From UHGV virus genome UHGV-0144289: 35,479 bases of DNA, one strand, 5' to 3'. The notes under the pieces were generated by a model. That model was not told where the DNA came from and did no database searches. It worked only from the letters and a program-made list of their open reading frames with translations. The translations under genes and the position numbers were made by a program. Within the stretch, counting starts at the first letter, position 1. Each line of letters begins with the position of its first letter. This document shows, in pieces, positions 583-12,165 of the stretch. This DNA comes from a virus.

Positions 583-1599
583 TCATTTTTTCTGACCACC
601 AACAACCGGCACAATTTTAGTTTTCCTGTCGTAAATCGCCGTTTGTCTCGAATTCTTATGGCCTGAAATCGCCTGTTTCTCCTCGAGGCTTCCTTCCAGA
701 TCAGAGACACCTTTCGCTTTCAGATCGTGGAAAGTGAAATCTATCTGCAGGTGTGGGTTCTTTTCCTGCGCTGCGATTTTCGCGTCGCGCCAGCGTGAAT
801 TAAAACCGTCACGGGTGTATTTGCTGCCGCTGGTCTGGTGAATGACAAACAGGCTACGGATACCCGGCTTTAACGGCAGGGAACGGGCGAGGGCGACAGC
901 GGCGCGCAGGCGTGGCGACCATGCTTTGATTTGCTTCACGCCTGTTTTCCCCTGGCGGATAAAGATCCCGGTTTCGCGTATCTGGTCTTCAGTCAAAGCC
1001 AGCACATCGCTTTGTCTGGCCAGACACAAATAAGCGATTTCCATGGTGGCGCGAACTACGTCTGGAGCAACATCGTAAACCGCTTTGTATTCTTCGTCGG
1101 TGATGTAACGCTCCCGGGCTGCCTCTTTGAACTTCTTAACGCCCTGACAGGGATTATGCTGGACGTAACCCCGCTCATAACCCCAGCGGAATACCCGAGA
1201 AAGAAAACTCTTTTCCCGGTTGGCCTGCGTTTTACTGGCCATGCCACGCTGATCCATATAGCGCCGGATGTGTTCCGGTTTAATTTTATCGGGGTTAACC
1301 TTCCCGAACACCGGCAACACTTTGCCTGCGTATTTCGTGTAGTCTTTGCGGGTTTCTGCCGCTAAATCCTGCCAGTCAGGGGAAGACATGAATTGATCGG
1401 CCAGAGCCTGAAACGTCTTGCGCTCGACTTCTTCTCCCATGGCTTTTTCATATGCCAGCCATACAGCTGATTGAGGCTCGGAGAGCGCACATAGCCTGAT
1501 AGCCTTGTTATCTTTATTCCTGAATTCATACGCCGCCTTACCGCGATACACGCGGGGCGGCATCCAGTTATCAGCGGGGTTCTTACGTTTTCCGGCCAT
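583..1599 (-). CDS. int: Phage integrase, tyrosine recombinase family
   Basis: 338-aa ORF adjacent to the tRNA attachment region; C-terminal half has the catalytic-domain pattern of tyrosine recombinases (conserved R, H-x-x-R and a Tyr nucleophile near the C-terminus, ...TAIYDRKTK). Confidence 0.9.
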   Translation of the reverse strand: MAGKRKNPADNWMPPRVYRGKAAYEFRNKDNKAIRLCALSEPQSAVWLAYEKAMGEEVERKTFQALADQFMSSPDWQDLAAETRKDYTKYAGKVLPVFGKVNPDKIKPEHIRRYMDQRGMASKTQANREKSFLSRVFRWGYERGYVQHNPCQGVKKFKEAARERYITDEEYKAVYDVAPDVVRATMEIAYLCLARQSDVLALTEDQIRETGIFIRQGKTGVKQIKAWSPRLRAAVALARSLPLKPGIRSLFVIHQTSGSKYTRDGFNSRWRDAKIAAQEKNPHLQIDFTFHDLKAKGVSDLEGSLEEKQAISGHKNSRQTAIYDRKTKIVPVVGGQKK

Positions 1600-1828
1600 T
1601 AAAGATAGCTCCGAAGTCTGGTTCTTCCTCCCGCACCGTCTCTTCCTGCTGGTTGCGGTATTTAATCGGGTTCAGGAAATGGCCCCACGTCGTTTTAGGA
1701 TGGCCGTCTGCCCTTTCCATGAAAAAGACACCGGCCCGACGTAGCGCTTCACACTGCCTCGATTTAAGTGGGGTCCCCGTCAGTTCGATCATTTCCTCTC
1801 TGGTGATGATGTCGTGATCGTGTCTCAT
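1583..1828 (-). CDS. xis: Excisionase-like small DNA-binding protein
   Basis: 81-aa ORF directly upstream of and overlapping int by 17 nt; helix-turn-helix-like segment (REEMIELTGTPLKSRQCEALRRAG); start codon preceded by the GAGGAAAGACC start-associated motif. Confidence 0.5.
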   Translation of the reverse strand: MRHDHDIITREEMIELTGTPLKSRQCEALRRAGVFFMERADGHPKTTWGHFLNPIKYRNQQEETVREEEPDFGAIFNGRKT

Positions 1829-2037: not shown

Positions 2038-2259
2038 TTATTTCTGATTAGGCTTAATCAGGTTTGGTTTATTCCGGAACGCGCCATTTTCGCGGGTGAT
2101 TTTGGCACTGCGCGGAAAATGCATAGCCAGTTCACAACGCGCGCAGGCTTCGATTATCCCGTTAGTACCGTCCGGAAAAACGACGTGAAGCGCGTCGCCT
2201 CGTTTCAGTGTGAGTTTCAGCATATCAGCGCACCTGCAGCGAACGTTCGCCAATCTCAA
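2038..2259 (-). CDS. Hypothetical early protein
   Basis: 73-aa ORF in the leftward early operon, overlapping the next gene by a few codons; no confident domain assignment. Confidence 0.4.
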   Translation of the reverse strand: MRLANVRCRCADMLKLTLKRGDALHVVFPDGTNGIIEACARCELAMHFPRSAKITRENGAFRNKPNLIKPNQK

Positions 2260-2791
2260 GGTGAGCGCCCGGCACTGGGTTTAACAGTTCTTCCGGTATC
2301 TCTCCGCCGTCAGCGGTAATCTGGGCCGCCGCTGCCTGTGCTGATTCAATCGCTTCCTTGATGGCTTTCTTGTCCGGAGTGACTAACGTCTGAACTGTCA
2401 CTAATTCATCCGGCAGTAATTCATCATTATCGATCACGACGTTTATAGCTCCCTTACGTGCGGTAAAGGTATTTTTGGCGGTTTTAACCGTATCCTGACC
2501 GGCGGCCAGTAGACACTGGAGAACATATTTCTTCAGGTTCGTGATCTTACCTTCGAATGATTTTTTGCGGGCGGCAAGGCGTTTGGCCTCTTCATCGCAG
2601 GTTTTTGCCAGGCCTTCCAGATTGCGAACGTGGACGAAAACGGCATCCAGTTTATCGCCGAGTTGTAACTCAAGACCTTCCATTGTGTCGGCGATCATTT
2701 CAGGAGACAGACCAGCACCGTCTTCGTTTTCCAGTAGTGCCTGGAGTTTTGACATATCGGCTGCGATAGCAATTGCAGTGGTGGAAGTCAT
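2225..2791 (-). CDS. Siphovirus Gp157-family protein (commonly found next to phage recombinases)
   Basis: 188 aa; coiled-coil N-terminus and the pattern EEAKRLAARKKSFEGKITNLKKYVLQCL...TFTARKG...VIDNDELLPDEL, which resembles the Gp157 family as I recall it; immediately downstream of the annealing-protein gene. Confidence 0.5.
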   Translation of the reverse strand: MTSTTAIAIAADMSKLQALLENEDGAGLSPEMIADTMEGLELQLGDKLDAVFVHVRNLEGLAKTCDEEAKRLAARKKSFEGKITNLKKYVLQCLLAAGQDTVKTAKNTFTARKGAINVVIDNDELLPDELVTVQTLVTPDKKAIKEAIESAQAAAAQITADGGEIPEELLNPVPGAHLEIGERSLQVR

Positions 2792-4941
2792 TATGCTTTC
2801 TCCTCGGCTTTATTCAGTTCTTTAATGCGCCCATCTTTGATGGAGATGAGTCGGCGGAGCCGGCCAGACAGATAACGTTCATGCTGCGTGTCGCCGTTGG
2901 CCTGGGCGGCTTTAATGTGAACATCGATCTCACGTGCGATAGGGGAAAACACACCGTTGATTTCGTTCACCGTCACGCCATGCGCCAGGGTATTAGCAAC
3001 GCGGCTTAATTTATCGTCAAACTCCTGGCGGAGCCGTGCTGCATCTTCGGCTGATTCGCTGGCGTTCTTCAGGTCAAACTCGGCCTTGTTCTTCTGGCGG
3101 TACTCCAGATTGTCGTAAAGCCCCATAAAGATATCGCCACTGAATCCGAGGCCGGATAACGCTTTTTTGGTCGCATCTGTCAGTGATTTTTTGGCTGCTT
3201 CGCCGTCGCAGGTGATCCCGTATTTACTACCGTAAATGTAGGGTGTACAGCCGTATGCTGTTTCCTCACCTCGTACTCCGTTCAGGATGTACCAGAGCCG
3301 GACAGTCACAACATGGTGCTGTTCGTTGACGGTATTACCATTCCCATCAAGAACCAGCTCCCACGATGCGTTGTTGTCTTTGCCTTTTACCTGCCGAGTG
3401 ATCGGCGCGCCAATATCGAAACGCTCTTCAACAATATCCACGCCCCAGCCGATGCCCTTAGGGCCAAACTCACGTGTGGCAAGCATGGTCATGTAGGTAC
3501 CGTTGATCGAGGTGCCACCGCCGTTCTGTGTGAAAGCCTTAGTAAACCTTTCGTCGGTTTTAAATACGCGTTTCCAGAGGTCTAAATTGTCTTCCCCGAT
3601 AATTGGTTTTCCGACAGCCTGCACAACATCCTCAGCGTTAGGCAGGCTTTCAGCGTGAGCGATTTGTTTTGCTAAACGCTCGGAATCATCAGCCAGTTTT
3701 TCAGCCTTAACGCTTAACTTCTCTTCCGGCTCTGCACCTTCACCAGAGGCATATACGCCATAACCCATATCATTGAGCGTCTCACGCGCCTGTTTGGCCT
3801 GAGTGTCGGTTACAACCGGCTGCTGCGCTTCCACTTTTTCGCCCACGTTTGAGGCGGTATTTTGCGTCGCCTCTGGTTGTTTAACGGATCCTGTCTCGGT
3901 TTCCTCAAAGCGACCGTTGGCCGCCAGCCATGAATCGATATGGCGGCGCAGGCTGTCAGGGAAATGGTAGGTATCTTTCGCCGGTACGTTTTGTACCACG
4001 CCGAAGATGCTGGCACGGTCGTATTTGAGTATCTGCGGCGTGGTGTGCAGCGATGCTGACCAGCGTTTAAAATCTTCCCGGTCATCGGAAATCATCTTCT
4101 TAGCGTCCAGAAGGTTTCCGGATAGTACCGGCGCATCAGGCGCCAGCGGGAGAAGGGCGGTAGCGATCTCCTGATCCAGCGTTGCATAAGTGTGTTTATA
4201 CCCGCGCTTAGAAATTACCACGGGTGTTTTATCATCGGTGCTGGTGCTGAGAGCGGTATTTTTATATACGCCGGGGGCCAGTTCGTCGCGCTTGCCCGGA
4301 TTCTCAAGCCAGCGTTTAACGAACTGAGAGATAGCCGCTTTGCCCGGCGTCTGGTTTTCAAAGTGGGAGAAAATACCCTGAATAAGATTGTTCAGACCTT
4401 CCACATGCATGCTTTGAACCGGGAAGTTATTTTGCAGGGCGCACAGAACATTAAAGTTAAAGCGATCTTCCTCTTCAAATTCCCCATCGTGGTTTTTCAG
4501 ATTATCCAGATAATCCACAACCTGAGAATAAAGATGGCCATCAATCGCCGCGGTGCTAAAAAGCAGGACGGCAGCAAAGCGTTCATCAGGGGAAACGGTC
4601 ATCAGGTCGATCACTTCATCGTCGGCTGGTAAACCTGCACCACTTCCGGAAGCGCTATCCTGCGCAGTAGAAACCCATTTTTCACCGTCAAAAGTATGCT
4701 GCTGGGCGAATGACTCATCGAACTGGCCAACGGTCGGCAGCGGCTGGCCTTCAACGTGTTCCCACAGTTTCGGTTTGAAATAGTTGTCACCATTGGCCGG
4801 GTATGATTCCCAGAGTTTGCCGGTCATAATGCTTTCGGCCACTTTTTTGTTTGGCGCATCGATGGCGATCGCCAGCTGCACGGCGCCGCAGTCTTTAATC
4901 GCCGATTTCTTTGGCTCAAATGAGCCGTTGTAGATGGTCAT
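2791..4941 (-). CDS. Large recombination protein with a C-terminal Erf/Rad52-like single-strand annealing domain and a ~430-aa N-terminal region of unknown function
   Basis: 716 aa from the ATG at 4941 (preceded by GAGGAAAGACCA). The C-terminal third (YGCTPYIYGSKYGITCDGEAAKKSLTDATKKALSGLGFSGDIFMG) resembles the conserved core of Erf/Rad52-type annealing proteins. Position in the early-left operon fits a recombination function. Confidence 0.6.
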   Translation of the reverse strand: MTIYNGSFEPKKSAIKDCGAVQLAIAIDAPNKKVAESIMTGKLWESYPANGDNYFKPKLWEHVEGQPLPTVGQFDESFAQQHTFDGEKWVSTAQDSASGSGAGLPADDEVIDLMTVSPDERFAAVLLFSTAAIDGHLYSQVVDYLDNLKNHDGEFEEEDRFNFNVLCALQNNFPVQSMHVEGLNNLIQGIFSHFENQTPGKAAISQFVKRWLENPGKRDELAPGVYKNTALSTSTDDKTPVVISKRGYKHTYATLDQEIATALLPLAPDAPVLSGNLLDAKKMISDDREDFKRWSASLHTTPQILKYDRASIFGVVQNVPAKDTYHFPDSLRRHIDSWLAANGRFEETETGSVKQPEATQNTASNVGEKVEAQQPVVTDTQAKQARETLNDMGYGVYASGEGAEPEEKLSVKAEKLADDSERLAKQIAHAESLPNAEDVVQAVGKPIIGEDNLDLWKRVFKTDERFTKAFTQNGGGTSINGTYMTMLATREFGPKGIGWGVDIVEERFDIGAPITRQVKGKDNNASWELVLDGNGNTVNEQHHVVTVRLWYILNGVRGEETAYGCTPYIYGSKYGITCDGEAAKKSLTDATKKALSGLGFSGDIFMGLYDNLEYRQKNKAEFDLKNASESAEDAARLRQEFDDKLSRVANTLAHGVTVNEINGVFSPIAREIDVHIKAAQANGDTQHERYLSGRLRRLISIKDGRIKELNKAEEKA

Positions 4942-4985
4942 TGGTCTTTCCTCTTGGTTACTGGCGCAGGTCACGCGCCGGTTAA

Positions 4986-5309
4986 TTAAAACGGTACGTC
5001 GCTTTCTTCAATTGGAGAGTGATCGATGCACAGCAGCTGCTGAATCTGGTCTTCAATAACACCCAGCTCCTTCTTTGCTTCGGCAGAGATTTTCTCTTTC
5101 TTCGCACGAAGGGCATTAACCTGCATACCAATAATGTCGATTGGCTCTAAAGCTGGAATGGCAACCTCTACCGTTTTGGTAGTAACGAGGACATACAGAT
5201 CAGGGTATTGCTGTGACATGTCACAGGTGAATGAGTGATAAGACGTTGGTAGATATGGTTTGGTTGTGGCCATAACGTAAATAGTTACGGGGATGGTAAG
5301 CGCTTCCAT
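4986..5309 (-). CDS. Hypothetical protein, first gene of the leftward early operon
   Basis: 107-aa ORF with RBS AAGGAG 7 nt upstream of the ATG; no domain recognised. Confidence 0.6.
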   Translation of the reverse strand: MEALTIPVTIYVMATTKPYLPTSYHSFTCDMSQQYPDLYVLVTTKTVEVAIPALEPIDIIGMQVNALRAKKEKISAEAKKELGVIEDQIQQLLCIDHSPIEESDVPF

Positions 5310-5809: not shown

Positions 5810-6223
5810 TTATTTTTTTGGAGTGTTTTTTTTCTTTTTTACCAAAAGTAACTCATCAAACAATCGCTGGAATCCGTCAACTTTATCTTTCAACTCATTG
5901 ATATGTCTATCTTTTTCTGATTCAGGTAGAGAATCAAAAAGATCAAGCAGTAGCTTTTGGCGATCATCTAACCGAGGTAAAAGCTCTTCTGCCTTCAACG
6001 GTTCATCGCTATCGGTACCGTTAAGTAACCATGTCGGAGAGCAACGAAGAGCCTCAGCGAGAGAAAACAGATTTTGCCCTTTTGGGGTGTTAATACCTGC
6101 TTCCCACTTGTAAACGCTGACGCCAGATATGCCAACGGCATCGGCGAGCTGCTGTTGTGTCAAACCAAGCTCTTTCCGTCTCGATGTAATGCGATCGTTA
6201 AAGGTCAATTTTTTCATATCCAT
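5810..6223 (-). CDS. Prophage repressor, XRE-family helix-turn-helix protein with no recognisable autocleavage (peptidase S24-like) domain
   Basis: 137 aa; N-terminal HTH (LTQQQLADAVGISGVSVYKWEAG); divergent from the cro-like gene across an operator region; the C-terminal part is acidic/coiled-coil with a lysine tail and shows no LexA/cI-type catalytic signature. Confidence 0.8.
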   Translation of the reverse strand: MDMKKLTFNDRITSRRKELGLTQQQLADAVGISGVSVYKWEAGINTPKGQNLFSLAEALRCSPTWLLNGTDSDEPLKAEELLPRLDDRQKLLLDLFDSLPESEKDRHINELKDKVDGFQRLFDELLLVKKKKNTPKK

Positions 6224-11320: not shown

Positions 11321-11551
11321 ATGAAAAACACTATTCAGGATTTAATGAATCACCAGTTCGCCATGCTGGAAACCGTCACCGATCCCAATATCAAAGGCGA
11401 CCTGCTTCAGGAAGAGTTATCGAGGGCTAAAGCGGTAGTGGAAATCGTCGGGGTGATGGTCGGTACTTATCGAGTTGCGCTCGACGCCCAGAAGGCTATT
11501 TATGACGGTACCGCAGGCAATGTACCTAAGATTATGGGGATCGAAAAATGA
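11321..11551 (+). CDS. Hypothetical small protein
   Basis: 76-aa ORF with start 2 nt after the methyltransferase stop. Confidence 0.5.
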   Translation: MKNTIQDLMNHQFAMLETVTDPNIKGDLLQEELSRAKAVVEIVGVMVGTYRVALDAQKAIYDGTAGNVPKIMGIEK

Positions 11552-12165
11552 TAGAGAAATACACTCCAGCCCAGGAGTTGTTTATCAAGCAGCATATTAA
11601 AAGCTCCACTGCGCGGGAATTAACTGAAATGTTTAACGCTAAATTTGGTACAAATAAGAGCGTGGGCGCTATTCGTATCTGGTGCAAATCTCATGGGTTA
11701 GGAAAGCAGTTTTTAATTGAGCCGCGCTATTCCGATGAGCAGCTGACTTTCATTTATGCCAATAGGAATCTAACGAATGCTGAACTTACAGAAAGGTTCA
11801 ACAGGAGATTCGGTACCGATAAAAAACCTGACAATATCAAGGATGTAAAGATAGCTCGCGGATGGACACGCGAACCTAAAGGCCGGAAACGCATTCTTCC
11901 ACAGTACATCACTGTTAATAAAGAGAAAATTAGACTCGATGTATACGTATATGAATGCGTACATGGAAAATTACCGTCTGGTTATTCGGTTATCCATCTG
12001 GATAATGATTTGAATAACAACAATATCAATAATCTACGCGCGGCACCTAAAGAAATACGCCGCCTGTTCTCTGGGGCGGGCTACTCAAAAATGCCGCAGG
12101 TTCTTGCTCCGGCGCTGTATGCACAAGTTATGCTCCGCCATGCAATTAAACGATTATCCAGCTAA
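11548..12165 (+). CDS. HNH homing-type endonuclease with two N-terminal DNA-binding repeats
   Basis: 205 aa; duplicated ~45-aa module (ELTEMFNAKFGTNKSVGAIRIW / ELTERFNRRFGTDKKPDNIKDVKIARGW) and HNH core VHGKLPSGYSVIHLDNDLNNNNINNL; markedly AT-rich compared with its neighbours. Confidence 0.75.
   Translation: MIEKYTPAQELFIKQHIKSSTARELTEMFNAKFGTNKSVGAIRIWCKSHGLGKQFLIEPRYSDEQLTFIYANRNLTNAELTERFNRRFGTDKKPDNIKDVKIARGWTREPKGRKRILPQYITVNKEKIRLDVYVYECVHGKLPSGYSVIHLDNDLNNNNINNLRAAPKEIRRLFSGAGYSKMPQVLAPALYAQVMLRHAIKRLSS

Follow-up and report, generated by a model that had tools for sequence, protein, structure and literature searches.

A probable fusion of a RecE-type N-terminal module to a Rad52/Sak-like annealase in a nuclease-free prophage cassette

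The virus genome UHGV-0144289 (35,479 nucleotides; this whole stretch is referred to here as the window) carries on its minus strand, at 2791-4941, a gene for a protein of 716 residues. We are fairly confident that this protein combines, in one polypeptide, a module homologous to the N-terminal regions of RecE and YdfE (RecE-N/YdfE_N) and a Rad52/Sak annealase, with a disordered linker of some 100 residues between them, and that it belongs to a nuclease-free cassette together with a protein of the Gp157 family. The most likely function of the fusion is that of a tethered annealase dependent on host nucleases. The combination of these two known families is undescribed in the literature searched: the surveys of Rad52-superfamily annealases that we checked make no mention of such fusions, searches for PF06630, PF27430 or "RecE N-terminal domain" returned no papers, and papers that mention YdfE state no function for it in title or abstract. 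An earlier note on this DNA had placed an annealing-like core behind a long N-terminal region of about 430 residues, for which it had offered a fused exonuclease partner or a new accessory domain among the possibilities.

Architecture of the fusion gene

The gene is a single open reading frame (ORF) that runs on the minus strand from an ATG at 4941 to a stop codon at 2791-2793. The ATG has AAGAGGAAAG directly 5' of it, which contains a GAGG core, and the homologues all begin MTIYNG... or M..Y/F..., in agreement with this start in the alignment. An in-frame GTG at 4974, which would give a protein of 727 residues, was rejected as the start; the ATG is preferred because it has a Shine-Dalgarno site and a start shared by the homologues. 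At the other end, the TAA of the fusion gene overlaps the ATG of the Gp157-family gene as TAATG. The coordinates and gene order of the earlier note were right, including the Gp157-family gene 3' of the ORF, and the strand is minus. The parts of the gene are as follows.

2791-4941, minus strand: RecE-N/YdfE_N::Rad52-like fusion coding sequence, 716 residues plus TAA stop (ORF list; PHROG 2489 over the full length, E=0; single-ORF homologues)
4950-4953, minus strand: Shine-Dalgarno core GAGG, 8 nt 5' of the ATG at 4941 (read from the sequence)
3907-4941, minus strand: N-terminal module, RecE-N/YdfE_N homologue, residues 1-345 (hhalign, PHROG, NCBIfam, BLASTP)
3598-3906, minus strand: linker, predicted with low confidence and probably disordered, residues 346-448 (AlphaFold2, AF2)
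3748-3813, minus strand: conserved linker motif VTDTQAKQARETLNDMGYGVYA, of the GYGVYA type, residues 377-398
3109-3597, minus strand: putative Rad52/Sak-type annealing core, residues 449-611, with the invariant motif KKSLTDAxKKALSxLGF
2794-3108, minus strand: C-terminal three-helix region, candidate partner-binding tail, residues 612-716 (AF2)

The C-terminal third resembles Rad52/Sak annealing proteins

Searched alone against Pfam, residues 430-716 gave a sub-threshold match to Rad52_Rad22 (13.6 bits, E=0.066). Relatives of this region lead to about 100 clusters, which consist mostly of free-standing proteins 235-290 residues long; one (P0053) has a precomputed PF04098 annotation and one is named Rad52/22 by UniRef. 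In an alignment of 31 members the motif KKSLTDAxKKALSxLGFxxD is invariant, and 19 of the 31 match Rad52_Rad22 individually at E<=1, the best at 1.9e-6. Among the Pfam families of single-strand annealing proteins, Rad52_Rad22 alone matched the window protein and its relatives. The Erf profile (PF04404) matched neither the window protein nor any of the 31 relatives, and the Erf-labelled models in BFVD are weaker Foldseek matches (E about 7e-3 or worse) that rank below the Rad52-labelled ones. Because no Erf profile matched, the domain is, on its relatives and predicted fold, Rad52/Sak-like rather than Erf-like; of the Erf/Rad52-like label in the earlier note, the Rad52 part is borne out by the Pfam matches of the relatives and by the fold matches, and the Erf part falls away.

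The AF2 model of the C-terminal domain, built from the 31-member alignment, has a predicted local distance difference test score (pLDDT) of 90.7 and shows a long β-hairpin and sheet together with a bridging helix; three long helices make up the C-terminal end. A three-stranded β-sheet crossed by an α-helix, together with a β-hairpin, is the arrangement that defines the Rad52 fold, and it is present in the model. RAD52, Mgm101 and 80alpha Sak were the top fold matches and the only significant ones. When the full-length model was compared by Foldseek with the PDB, only RAD52 chains were found (E=8e-6, probability 1.00), and the same comparison with BFVD returned only free-standing viral annealases of the Rad52/Erf type. 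The β-sheet/helix core spans residues ~449-611, which agrees with the earlier placement of an annealing-like core in the C-terminal third only.

In a profile-to-sequence hhalign comparison with human RAD52 (E=7e-4), K592/K593 align with two residues of the inner DNA-binding site, K152/R153. The RAD52 sequence used here has R55, Y65, K102, K133, K152, R153 and R156 at their literature positions. Across an alignment of 26 fusions K584, K585 and K593 never vary, and K592 is retained in at least 90%. Sequence relatives and modeled fold together suggest that the domain has annealing activity. Beyond the core, the tail is predicted to consist of helices at residues 612-653, 658-682 and 685-715 (pLDDT about 85-90), and it may be a partner-binding tail by analogy with the Redβ C-terminal domain as outlined in PMC6393309.

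The N-terminal module is homologous to a non-catalytic region of RecE

Sequence searches with the full protein (Pfam, NCBIfam, PDB by phmmer, PDB by profile) gave nothing significant, and the window protein has no direct Pfam match to PF06630 (Exonuc_VIII). The identities of its two halves emerged solely from domain-wise profiles and predicted structure, not from direct full-protein searches. We compared by hhalign the N-terminal regions of the Rad52-type fusions with those of nuclease-bearing RecE proteins, leaving out of the profile the seven fusions in which phmmer had matched the N-terminal region of RecE at all; residues 11-342 of the window protein then corresponded to RecE residues 10-353 with a probability of 100% (E=6.6e-40, 301 columns). 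The whole protein falls into phrog_2489 ("exonuclease"), and residues ~180-390 match RecE-type families (PHROG 607 and 2082). NCBIfam PRK09709 (exodeoxyribonuclease VIII, by its middle part) matched at positions 176-381 with 41.6 bits, against a cut-off of 1269. By BLASTP, E. coli RecE was matched only between residues 247-320 and RecE residues 256-332 (E=2e-4), and E. coli K-12 YdfE, a Qin-prophage pseudogene, was matched over residues 10-260 (E=2e-10). PF27430 (YdfE_N) is precomputed on homologues that are 81-97% identical to the N-terminal query, such as P0103. Residues 1-429 searched against 1.84 billion representative proteins recovered only 144 clusters at E<=0.001. That the N-terminal region lacks recognizable motifs, as the earlier note had it, is true of direct Pfam and PDB sequence searches and untrue of profiles, which relate it to RecE-N and YdfE_N.

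The nuclease domain of RecE comprises residues 564-866, preceded by ~560 residues without known function, and the N-terminal domain of RecE boosts linear-linear recombination (PMC11611040). In the window protein, Pfam, hidden Markov model and fold comparisons found no nuclease domain (PD-(D/E)XK or DEDDh; DUF3799 or RNase_T), and a phmmer search with the RecE nuclease domain (residues 564-866) had no match in the fusion-protein class. AF2 predicts three segments in the module, one α/β (residues 1-92) and two helical (residues 108-222 and 247-345), with pLDDT of about 75-90; none of them has a significant Foldseek neighbor in the PDB or BFVD when the full-length model is used. Over residues 1-350 of the 26 aligned fusions, the invariant or near-invariant positions are occupied by Ala, Gly, Pro and Leu only, and the lack of charged or polar residues among them argues against an enzyme. 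The suggestion of a fused exonuclease partner is therefore contradicted, since the matched part of RecE is non-catalytic and neither a PD-(D/E)XK nor a DEDDh domain is detectable, and the alternative suggestion of an accessory domain separate from the annealase is supported.

The two modules are connected by a linker with an AF2 pLDDT below 50 over most of residues 348-446, which varies in length among the fusions and is in frame and alignable. We tallied linker motifs in three classes of protein (Rad52-type, nuclease-type and other). The GYGVYA-type motif occurs in 10 of 24 Rad52-type fusions, in none of 17 nuclease-type proteins and in 1 of 45 other RecE-N proteins, whereas all three classes include proteins with RGEYVEGISDPxDPKW (Rac RecE; residues 463-478 of E. 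coli RecE) and proteins with NLGxGxFSID. The linker of the window protein has the GYGVYA-type motif only (residues 393-398) and neither of the other two.

RecE-N/YdfE_N is found with different C-terminal effectors

When long relatives of the N-terminal region were sorted by their C-terminal domain, at least four different domains were found on RecE-N/YdfE_N.

Rad52-like annealase C-terminus: ~24 clusters at 50% identity; example P0245
RecE PD-(D/E)XK nuclease C-terminus: Pfam DUF3799; 17 clusters, in two of which the RecE-nuclease match is weak; example P0361
DEDDh 3'-5' exonuclease C-terminus: Pfam Rv2179c-like, E=1e-65; example P0297 (loci L090-L091)
YdfE_C C-terminus: Pfam PF27432; example P0273 (loci L092-L094)

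P0245 is an annealase fusion whose N-terminus is a bona fide match to PF06630 (Exonuc_VIII; E=5e-77). A Gp157 gene follows the annealase class only, and none stands after the effector gene in the DEDDh-type or YdfE-type loci. Because the module occurs with several different effector domains, its likeliest role is that of a platform by which an activity in DNA-end processing is delivered to a shared target or partner.

Distribution and integrity of the single ORF

In a survey of one genome per bacterial species, from which 80 loci were kept, the full-length type was present in about 58 species of Enterobacterales at 31-78% identity, as a single uninterrupted ORF in about 50 of the 58. Carriers include Raoultella, Citrobacter, Serratia, Yersinia, Pectobacterium, Xenorhabdus, Photorhabdus, Proteus, Providencia, Pantoea, Rahnella and Erwinia; in Pseudomonas and others the C-terminal domain occurs only as a free-standing version of ~240-280 residues. 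The matches listed contain more than 100 clusters of proteins of ~714 residues, the majority from Klebsiella and others from Raoultella and E. coli, and a K. michiganensis protein (P0103) is 99% identical over its full length. The isolated phages vB_SmeS_BUCT708 and BUCT709 carry a single-ORF homologue with 81% identity, and gp07 of Pectobacterium phage ZF40 (locus L008), annotated "exonuclease", is 35% identical at 99% coverage. Homologues on E. coli chromosomes are named "phage-associated endonuclease" or "exonuclease family protein" in RefSeq.

Five or six genomes have an interrupted fusion gene. In Citrobacter murliniae (L014, 4001-6276), Mixta (L043, 4001-6054) and Photorhabdus luminescens (L066, 4001-5755) the interruption falls within the linker; in L042 and L035 it falls within the N-terminal region. 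The interrupted copies look like decay or secondary splitting; some could be sequencing errors or genuine two-gene variants. The earlier note had called for a comparison of homologous prophages as a check for a frameshift, and that comparison speaks for a genuine fusion protein rather than two genes, with the same single-ORF layout in BUCT708/709, in ZF40 and in most carrier species.

Partner genes and the absence of nuclease genes

Two small genes flank the fusion gene on the same strand.

2225-2791, minus strand: Gp157-family gene (Pfam Sipho_Gp157, E=8e-35; PHROG 253), translationally coupled to the fusion gene via TAATG
4986-5309, minus strand: ORF of 107 residues, PHROG 2479 (E=2e-53), with an SSB-tail-like C-terminus (...IEESDVPF; SSB, single-stranded DNA-binding protein)

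In 76 of the 80 loci, with fused and free-standing annealases alike, a Gp157-family ORF begins only a few bases from the stop codon of the annealase gene and mostly overlaps it; the four loci without it are all cut by contig ends. The same pairing is found with the free-standing annealases of Vibrio phage D79 and Pseudomonas phage Orisa01, in ZF40 (gp07/gp06) and at the P0245 locus, where the fusion is of the PF06630 type. Gp157 tracks the annealase domain, as RecT tracks the RecE nuclease, because the DEDDh-type and YdfE-type loci are without it. Homologues of the RecE nuclease, of a DnaQ-like exonuclease or of RecT were absent within ±4 kb in all 80 loci, and in the early region of the window we recognized no exonuclease for recombination like lambda Exo or RecE; an HNH endonuclease gene is present at 11548-12165. 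PHROG 253 labels the Gp157 family "Mu Gam-like end protection"; the Mu Gam family is not among its Pfam matches at E<=1 (Sipho_Gp157, Med9 and DUF7307), and the Gp157 profile compared with the PDB gave coiled-coil noise only.

Homologues of the 107-residue protein stand 5' of the fused annealase gene in 47 loci (of L009-L069) and also in L001-L003. Of these 47 upstream homologues, 32 end in an acidic stretch followed by [ILVT]P[FY] (ESDIPF, DEIPY, MELPY, EEIPY and others); the C-terminal tail of SSB itself is DDDIPF. The family was not found beside free-standing annealases, Rac RecE, or the DEDDh-type and YdfE-type genes. Judging by its C-terminal sequence, the protein may be an SSB-tail mimic and a possible third member of the cassette. 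PADLOC gave no match for the fusion, Gp157, the 107-residue protein or a 73-residue ORF.

Proposed function and alternative explanations

As in other Rad52/Sak proteins, the C-terminal half would bind single-stranded DNA through the basic helix KKSLTDAxKKAL and anneal complementary strands, probably as an oligomer if it behaves like the rest of its family. Because the cassette encodes no nuclease, the single-stranded substrate would come from host nucleases or from replication. Gp157 would be the working partner, with DNA ends as a possible site of action and the three-helix tail as a possible binding site, and in the lineage of the window the small upstream protein with the SSB-like tail probably cooperates as well. 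RecE-N/YdfE_N would serve in cis as a non-enzymatic platform for targeting to ends or partners, or for oligomerization, which fits the enhancement of linear-linear recombination by the corresponding part of RecE (PMC11611040). A wider proposal is that RecE-N/YdfE_N is a portable platform on interchangeable enzymes and, at the same time, that the three-gene cassette is an unrecognized nuclease-free system which recruits or redirects host SSB-interacting nucleases; we advance this tentatively and think it rather doubtful as a whole.

Several observations weigh against the picture of a platform-tethered Rad52-type annealase. Against PF04098 Rad52_Rad22, which has a gathering score of 20.3, the window protein reaches 13.6-13.7 bits (E about 0.06), and because it falls below that threshold its assignment to the Rad52 family rests on relatives and predicted structure; the match to annealing-protein profiles that the earlier note looked for was obtained for some of the relatives, and for the protein itself below the threshold only. 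The full-length AF2 model has a mean pLDDT of 74.8 and a predicted template modeling score of 0.34, leaving the geometry between the domains undefined. Separate halves in L014, L043 and L066 may mean that the covalent fusion is not essential, or that these copies are decaying. An hhalign comparison of a 77-sequence Gp157 profile with a single Mu Gam sequence gave a probability of 2%, and the Mu Gam-like label was not adopted. The platform role of RecE-N/YdfE_N, finally, is one that we infer from the company the module keeps.

If the database labels were taken at face value, the window protein would be a RecE-type exonuclease, an exonuclease VIII orthologue that resects double-stranded DNA ends. 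PHROG 2489, 7838, 2082 and 607 all carry the exonuclease label, PRK09709 matches weakly, and RefSeq and GenBank product names, like several phage records, read exonuclease or endonuclease. The similarity, however, is limited to RecE residues ~10-353, outside the nuclease domain at 564-866 (PMC11611040), a search with that domain found nothing in the fusion class, and the exonuclease VIII score of 41.6 bits is far from the cut-off of 1269. True RecE relatives match DUF3799/PDDEXK or RNase_T in Pfam, whereas the window protein does not; its C-terminal fold is that of RAD52, and no recT gene is adjacent. We regard an exonuclease as very improbable, and the names "exonuclease family protein", "exonuclease VIII" and "phage-associated endonuclease" as probably the result of annotation transfer from RecE-N similarity. 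No more credible is an artefact in which a sequencing error, or a frameshift of recent date, has joined an accessory gene to an annealase gene of ~270 residues. Annealase homologues that stand free, at 240-285 residues, do occur, as do the split versions in L014, L043 and L066, but the single ORF recurs in about 50 of the 58 carrier species at 31-78% identity, in BUCT708/709 and ZF40, and in the Klebsiella clusters; the linker is in frame and alignable; and the split copies are few, some of them broken inside the N-terminal domain (L042, L035) in a pattern that resembles decay.

A more substantial alternative concerns the N-terminal module, which might act primarily against the host, by inhibiting or hijacking RecBCD or another host nuclease or as an anti-defense decoy, so that the fusion would couple counter-defense to the annealase. 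Anti-RecBCD functions are usual in phage recombination modules (PMC12315714), the disordered linker contains conserved short linear motifs typical of partner-binding peptides, and the module both lacks an enzymatic signature and travels with several effector domains. It has, on the other hand, no similarity to Gam, GamL, Abc2, PADLOC or defense-related models, the N-terminal region of RecE enhances recombination itself (PMC11611040), and a candidate end-protection role has already been given, by label, to the adjacent Gp157. We consider an anti-host module unlikely and prefer the tethered annealase with its non-enzymatic N-terminal platform.

Relation to known recombination systems

The window protein shares with Rad52/Sak annealases (lactococcal ul36 Sak, staphylococcal 80alpha Sak, human RAD52's N-terminal domain and yeast Mgm101) a predicted β-β-β-α core with a hairpin, the conserved basic helix motif (KKSLTDAxKKAL, compared with RKEAVTDGLKRAL in RAD52), a helical C-terminal extension and a place in a phage early recombination module. 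It differs from the known phage members, which have 200-300 residues, in ~445 extra N-terminal residues (module plus linker), in a sequence too divergent for the PF04098 threshold, and in having Gp157, not an exonuclease or SSB gene, as its obligatory partner. With RecE of the Rac/Gifsy type it has in common the first ~345 residues, the layout of N-terminal module, disordered linker and C-terminal effector, and the position of the gene in the prophage, between cI and int and just upstream of a partner gene. Here, however, the effector is an annealase, on the evidence of its predicted fold, instead of a PD-(D/E)XK nuclease, the partner is Gp157 instead of RecT, and both the PF06630 match and the linker motifs RGEYVEGISDPNDPKW and NLGxGxFSID, which are present in RecE and many relatives, are missing. 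YdfE of Qin (PF27430 plus PF27432) probably belongs to the same N-terminal family and likewise has no nuclease domain, but the C-terminus of the window protein is Rad52-like instead of YdfE_C, and Gp157 is not found downstream of YdfE-type genes.

Lambda Red (Exo, Beta, Gam) and the P22 system (Erf, Abc) are likewise compact early-operon cassettes in which a Rad52-superfamily annealase is accompanied by accessory proteins, and modules of the P22 class, like the cassette described here, have no phage exonuclease (PMC12315714). The window cassette differs in its accessories, which are Gp157 and the small SSB-tail-like protein, and in an annealase that carries RecE-N in cis. The lambdoid survey of Zheng et al. 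2025 (PMC12315714) describes as "RecE-2" a set of RecE relatives in which, as in the window protein, the nuclease domain is absent, and whose roles are not known. In Table 1 of the same survey ZF40 is the only phage with an anti-RecBCD gene and no annealase, nuclease or SSB. The Rad52-like domain of ZF40 was apparently not recognized there, and because gp07 of ZF40 is homologous to the window protein over its full length, the "no annealase" classification probably needs revision.

More generally, the natural domain-swap variants suggest that the role of the RecE N-terminal module is separable from nuclease chemistry, and the portable-platform reading, if true, would give a first handle on what that domain does. 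Hundreds of Enterobacterales prophage proteins named "exonuclease" are probably annealases. The annealase and Gp157, with or without the SSB-tail-like protein, could serve as a compact tool for recombineering in Klebsiella, Serratia, Yersinia, Proteus, Xenorhabdus and their relatives.

Prophage context

The fusion gene sits in the early-left (recombination) region of a lambdoid prophage of the Klebsiella type. The prophage lies directly downstream of a tRNA-Gly/Cys/Leu cluster at 151-452, with the integrase gene adjacent, and the neighboring genes are these.

583-1599, minus strand: integrase
1583-1828, minus strand: excisionase
2038-2259, minus strand: small ORF, PHROG 2482 (function not assigned), downstream of the Gp157 gene and overlapping it
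5810-6223, minus strand: cI-like repressor
11548-12165, plus strand: HNH endonuclease gene

On the plus strand beyond the cI-like repressor are cro, cII, O-like and DnaB-like replication genes, a methyltransferase gene and the HNH gene. Chi sites (GCTGGTGG) number four on the plus strand (13204, 16692, 22530 and 34694) and zero on the minus strand, against an expectation of about one; four were reached in 2 of 100 shuffles. This hints weakly at co-orientation, in a phage that has no recombination exonuclease itself; as a sign of RecBCD dependence it is suggestive, too weak to rely on, and was not used.

The phages BUCT708/709 (L001) resemble the window prophage closely, with proteins 81-96% identical and much the same early-gene order over a 14-kb stretch from the integrase to the replicative helicase; their recorded host is Stenotrophomonas maltophilia, an assignment that looks odd. 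A related prophage in E. coli 23GD11002 (L002, 2151-3600) occupies the same tRNA cluster, downstream of pgsA. In L001, L002 and L003 a gene of 183-186 nt stands at the position of the window ORF 2038-2259.

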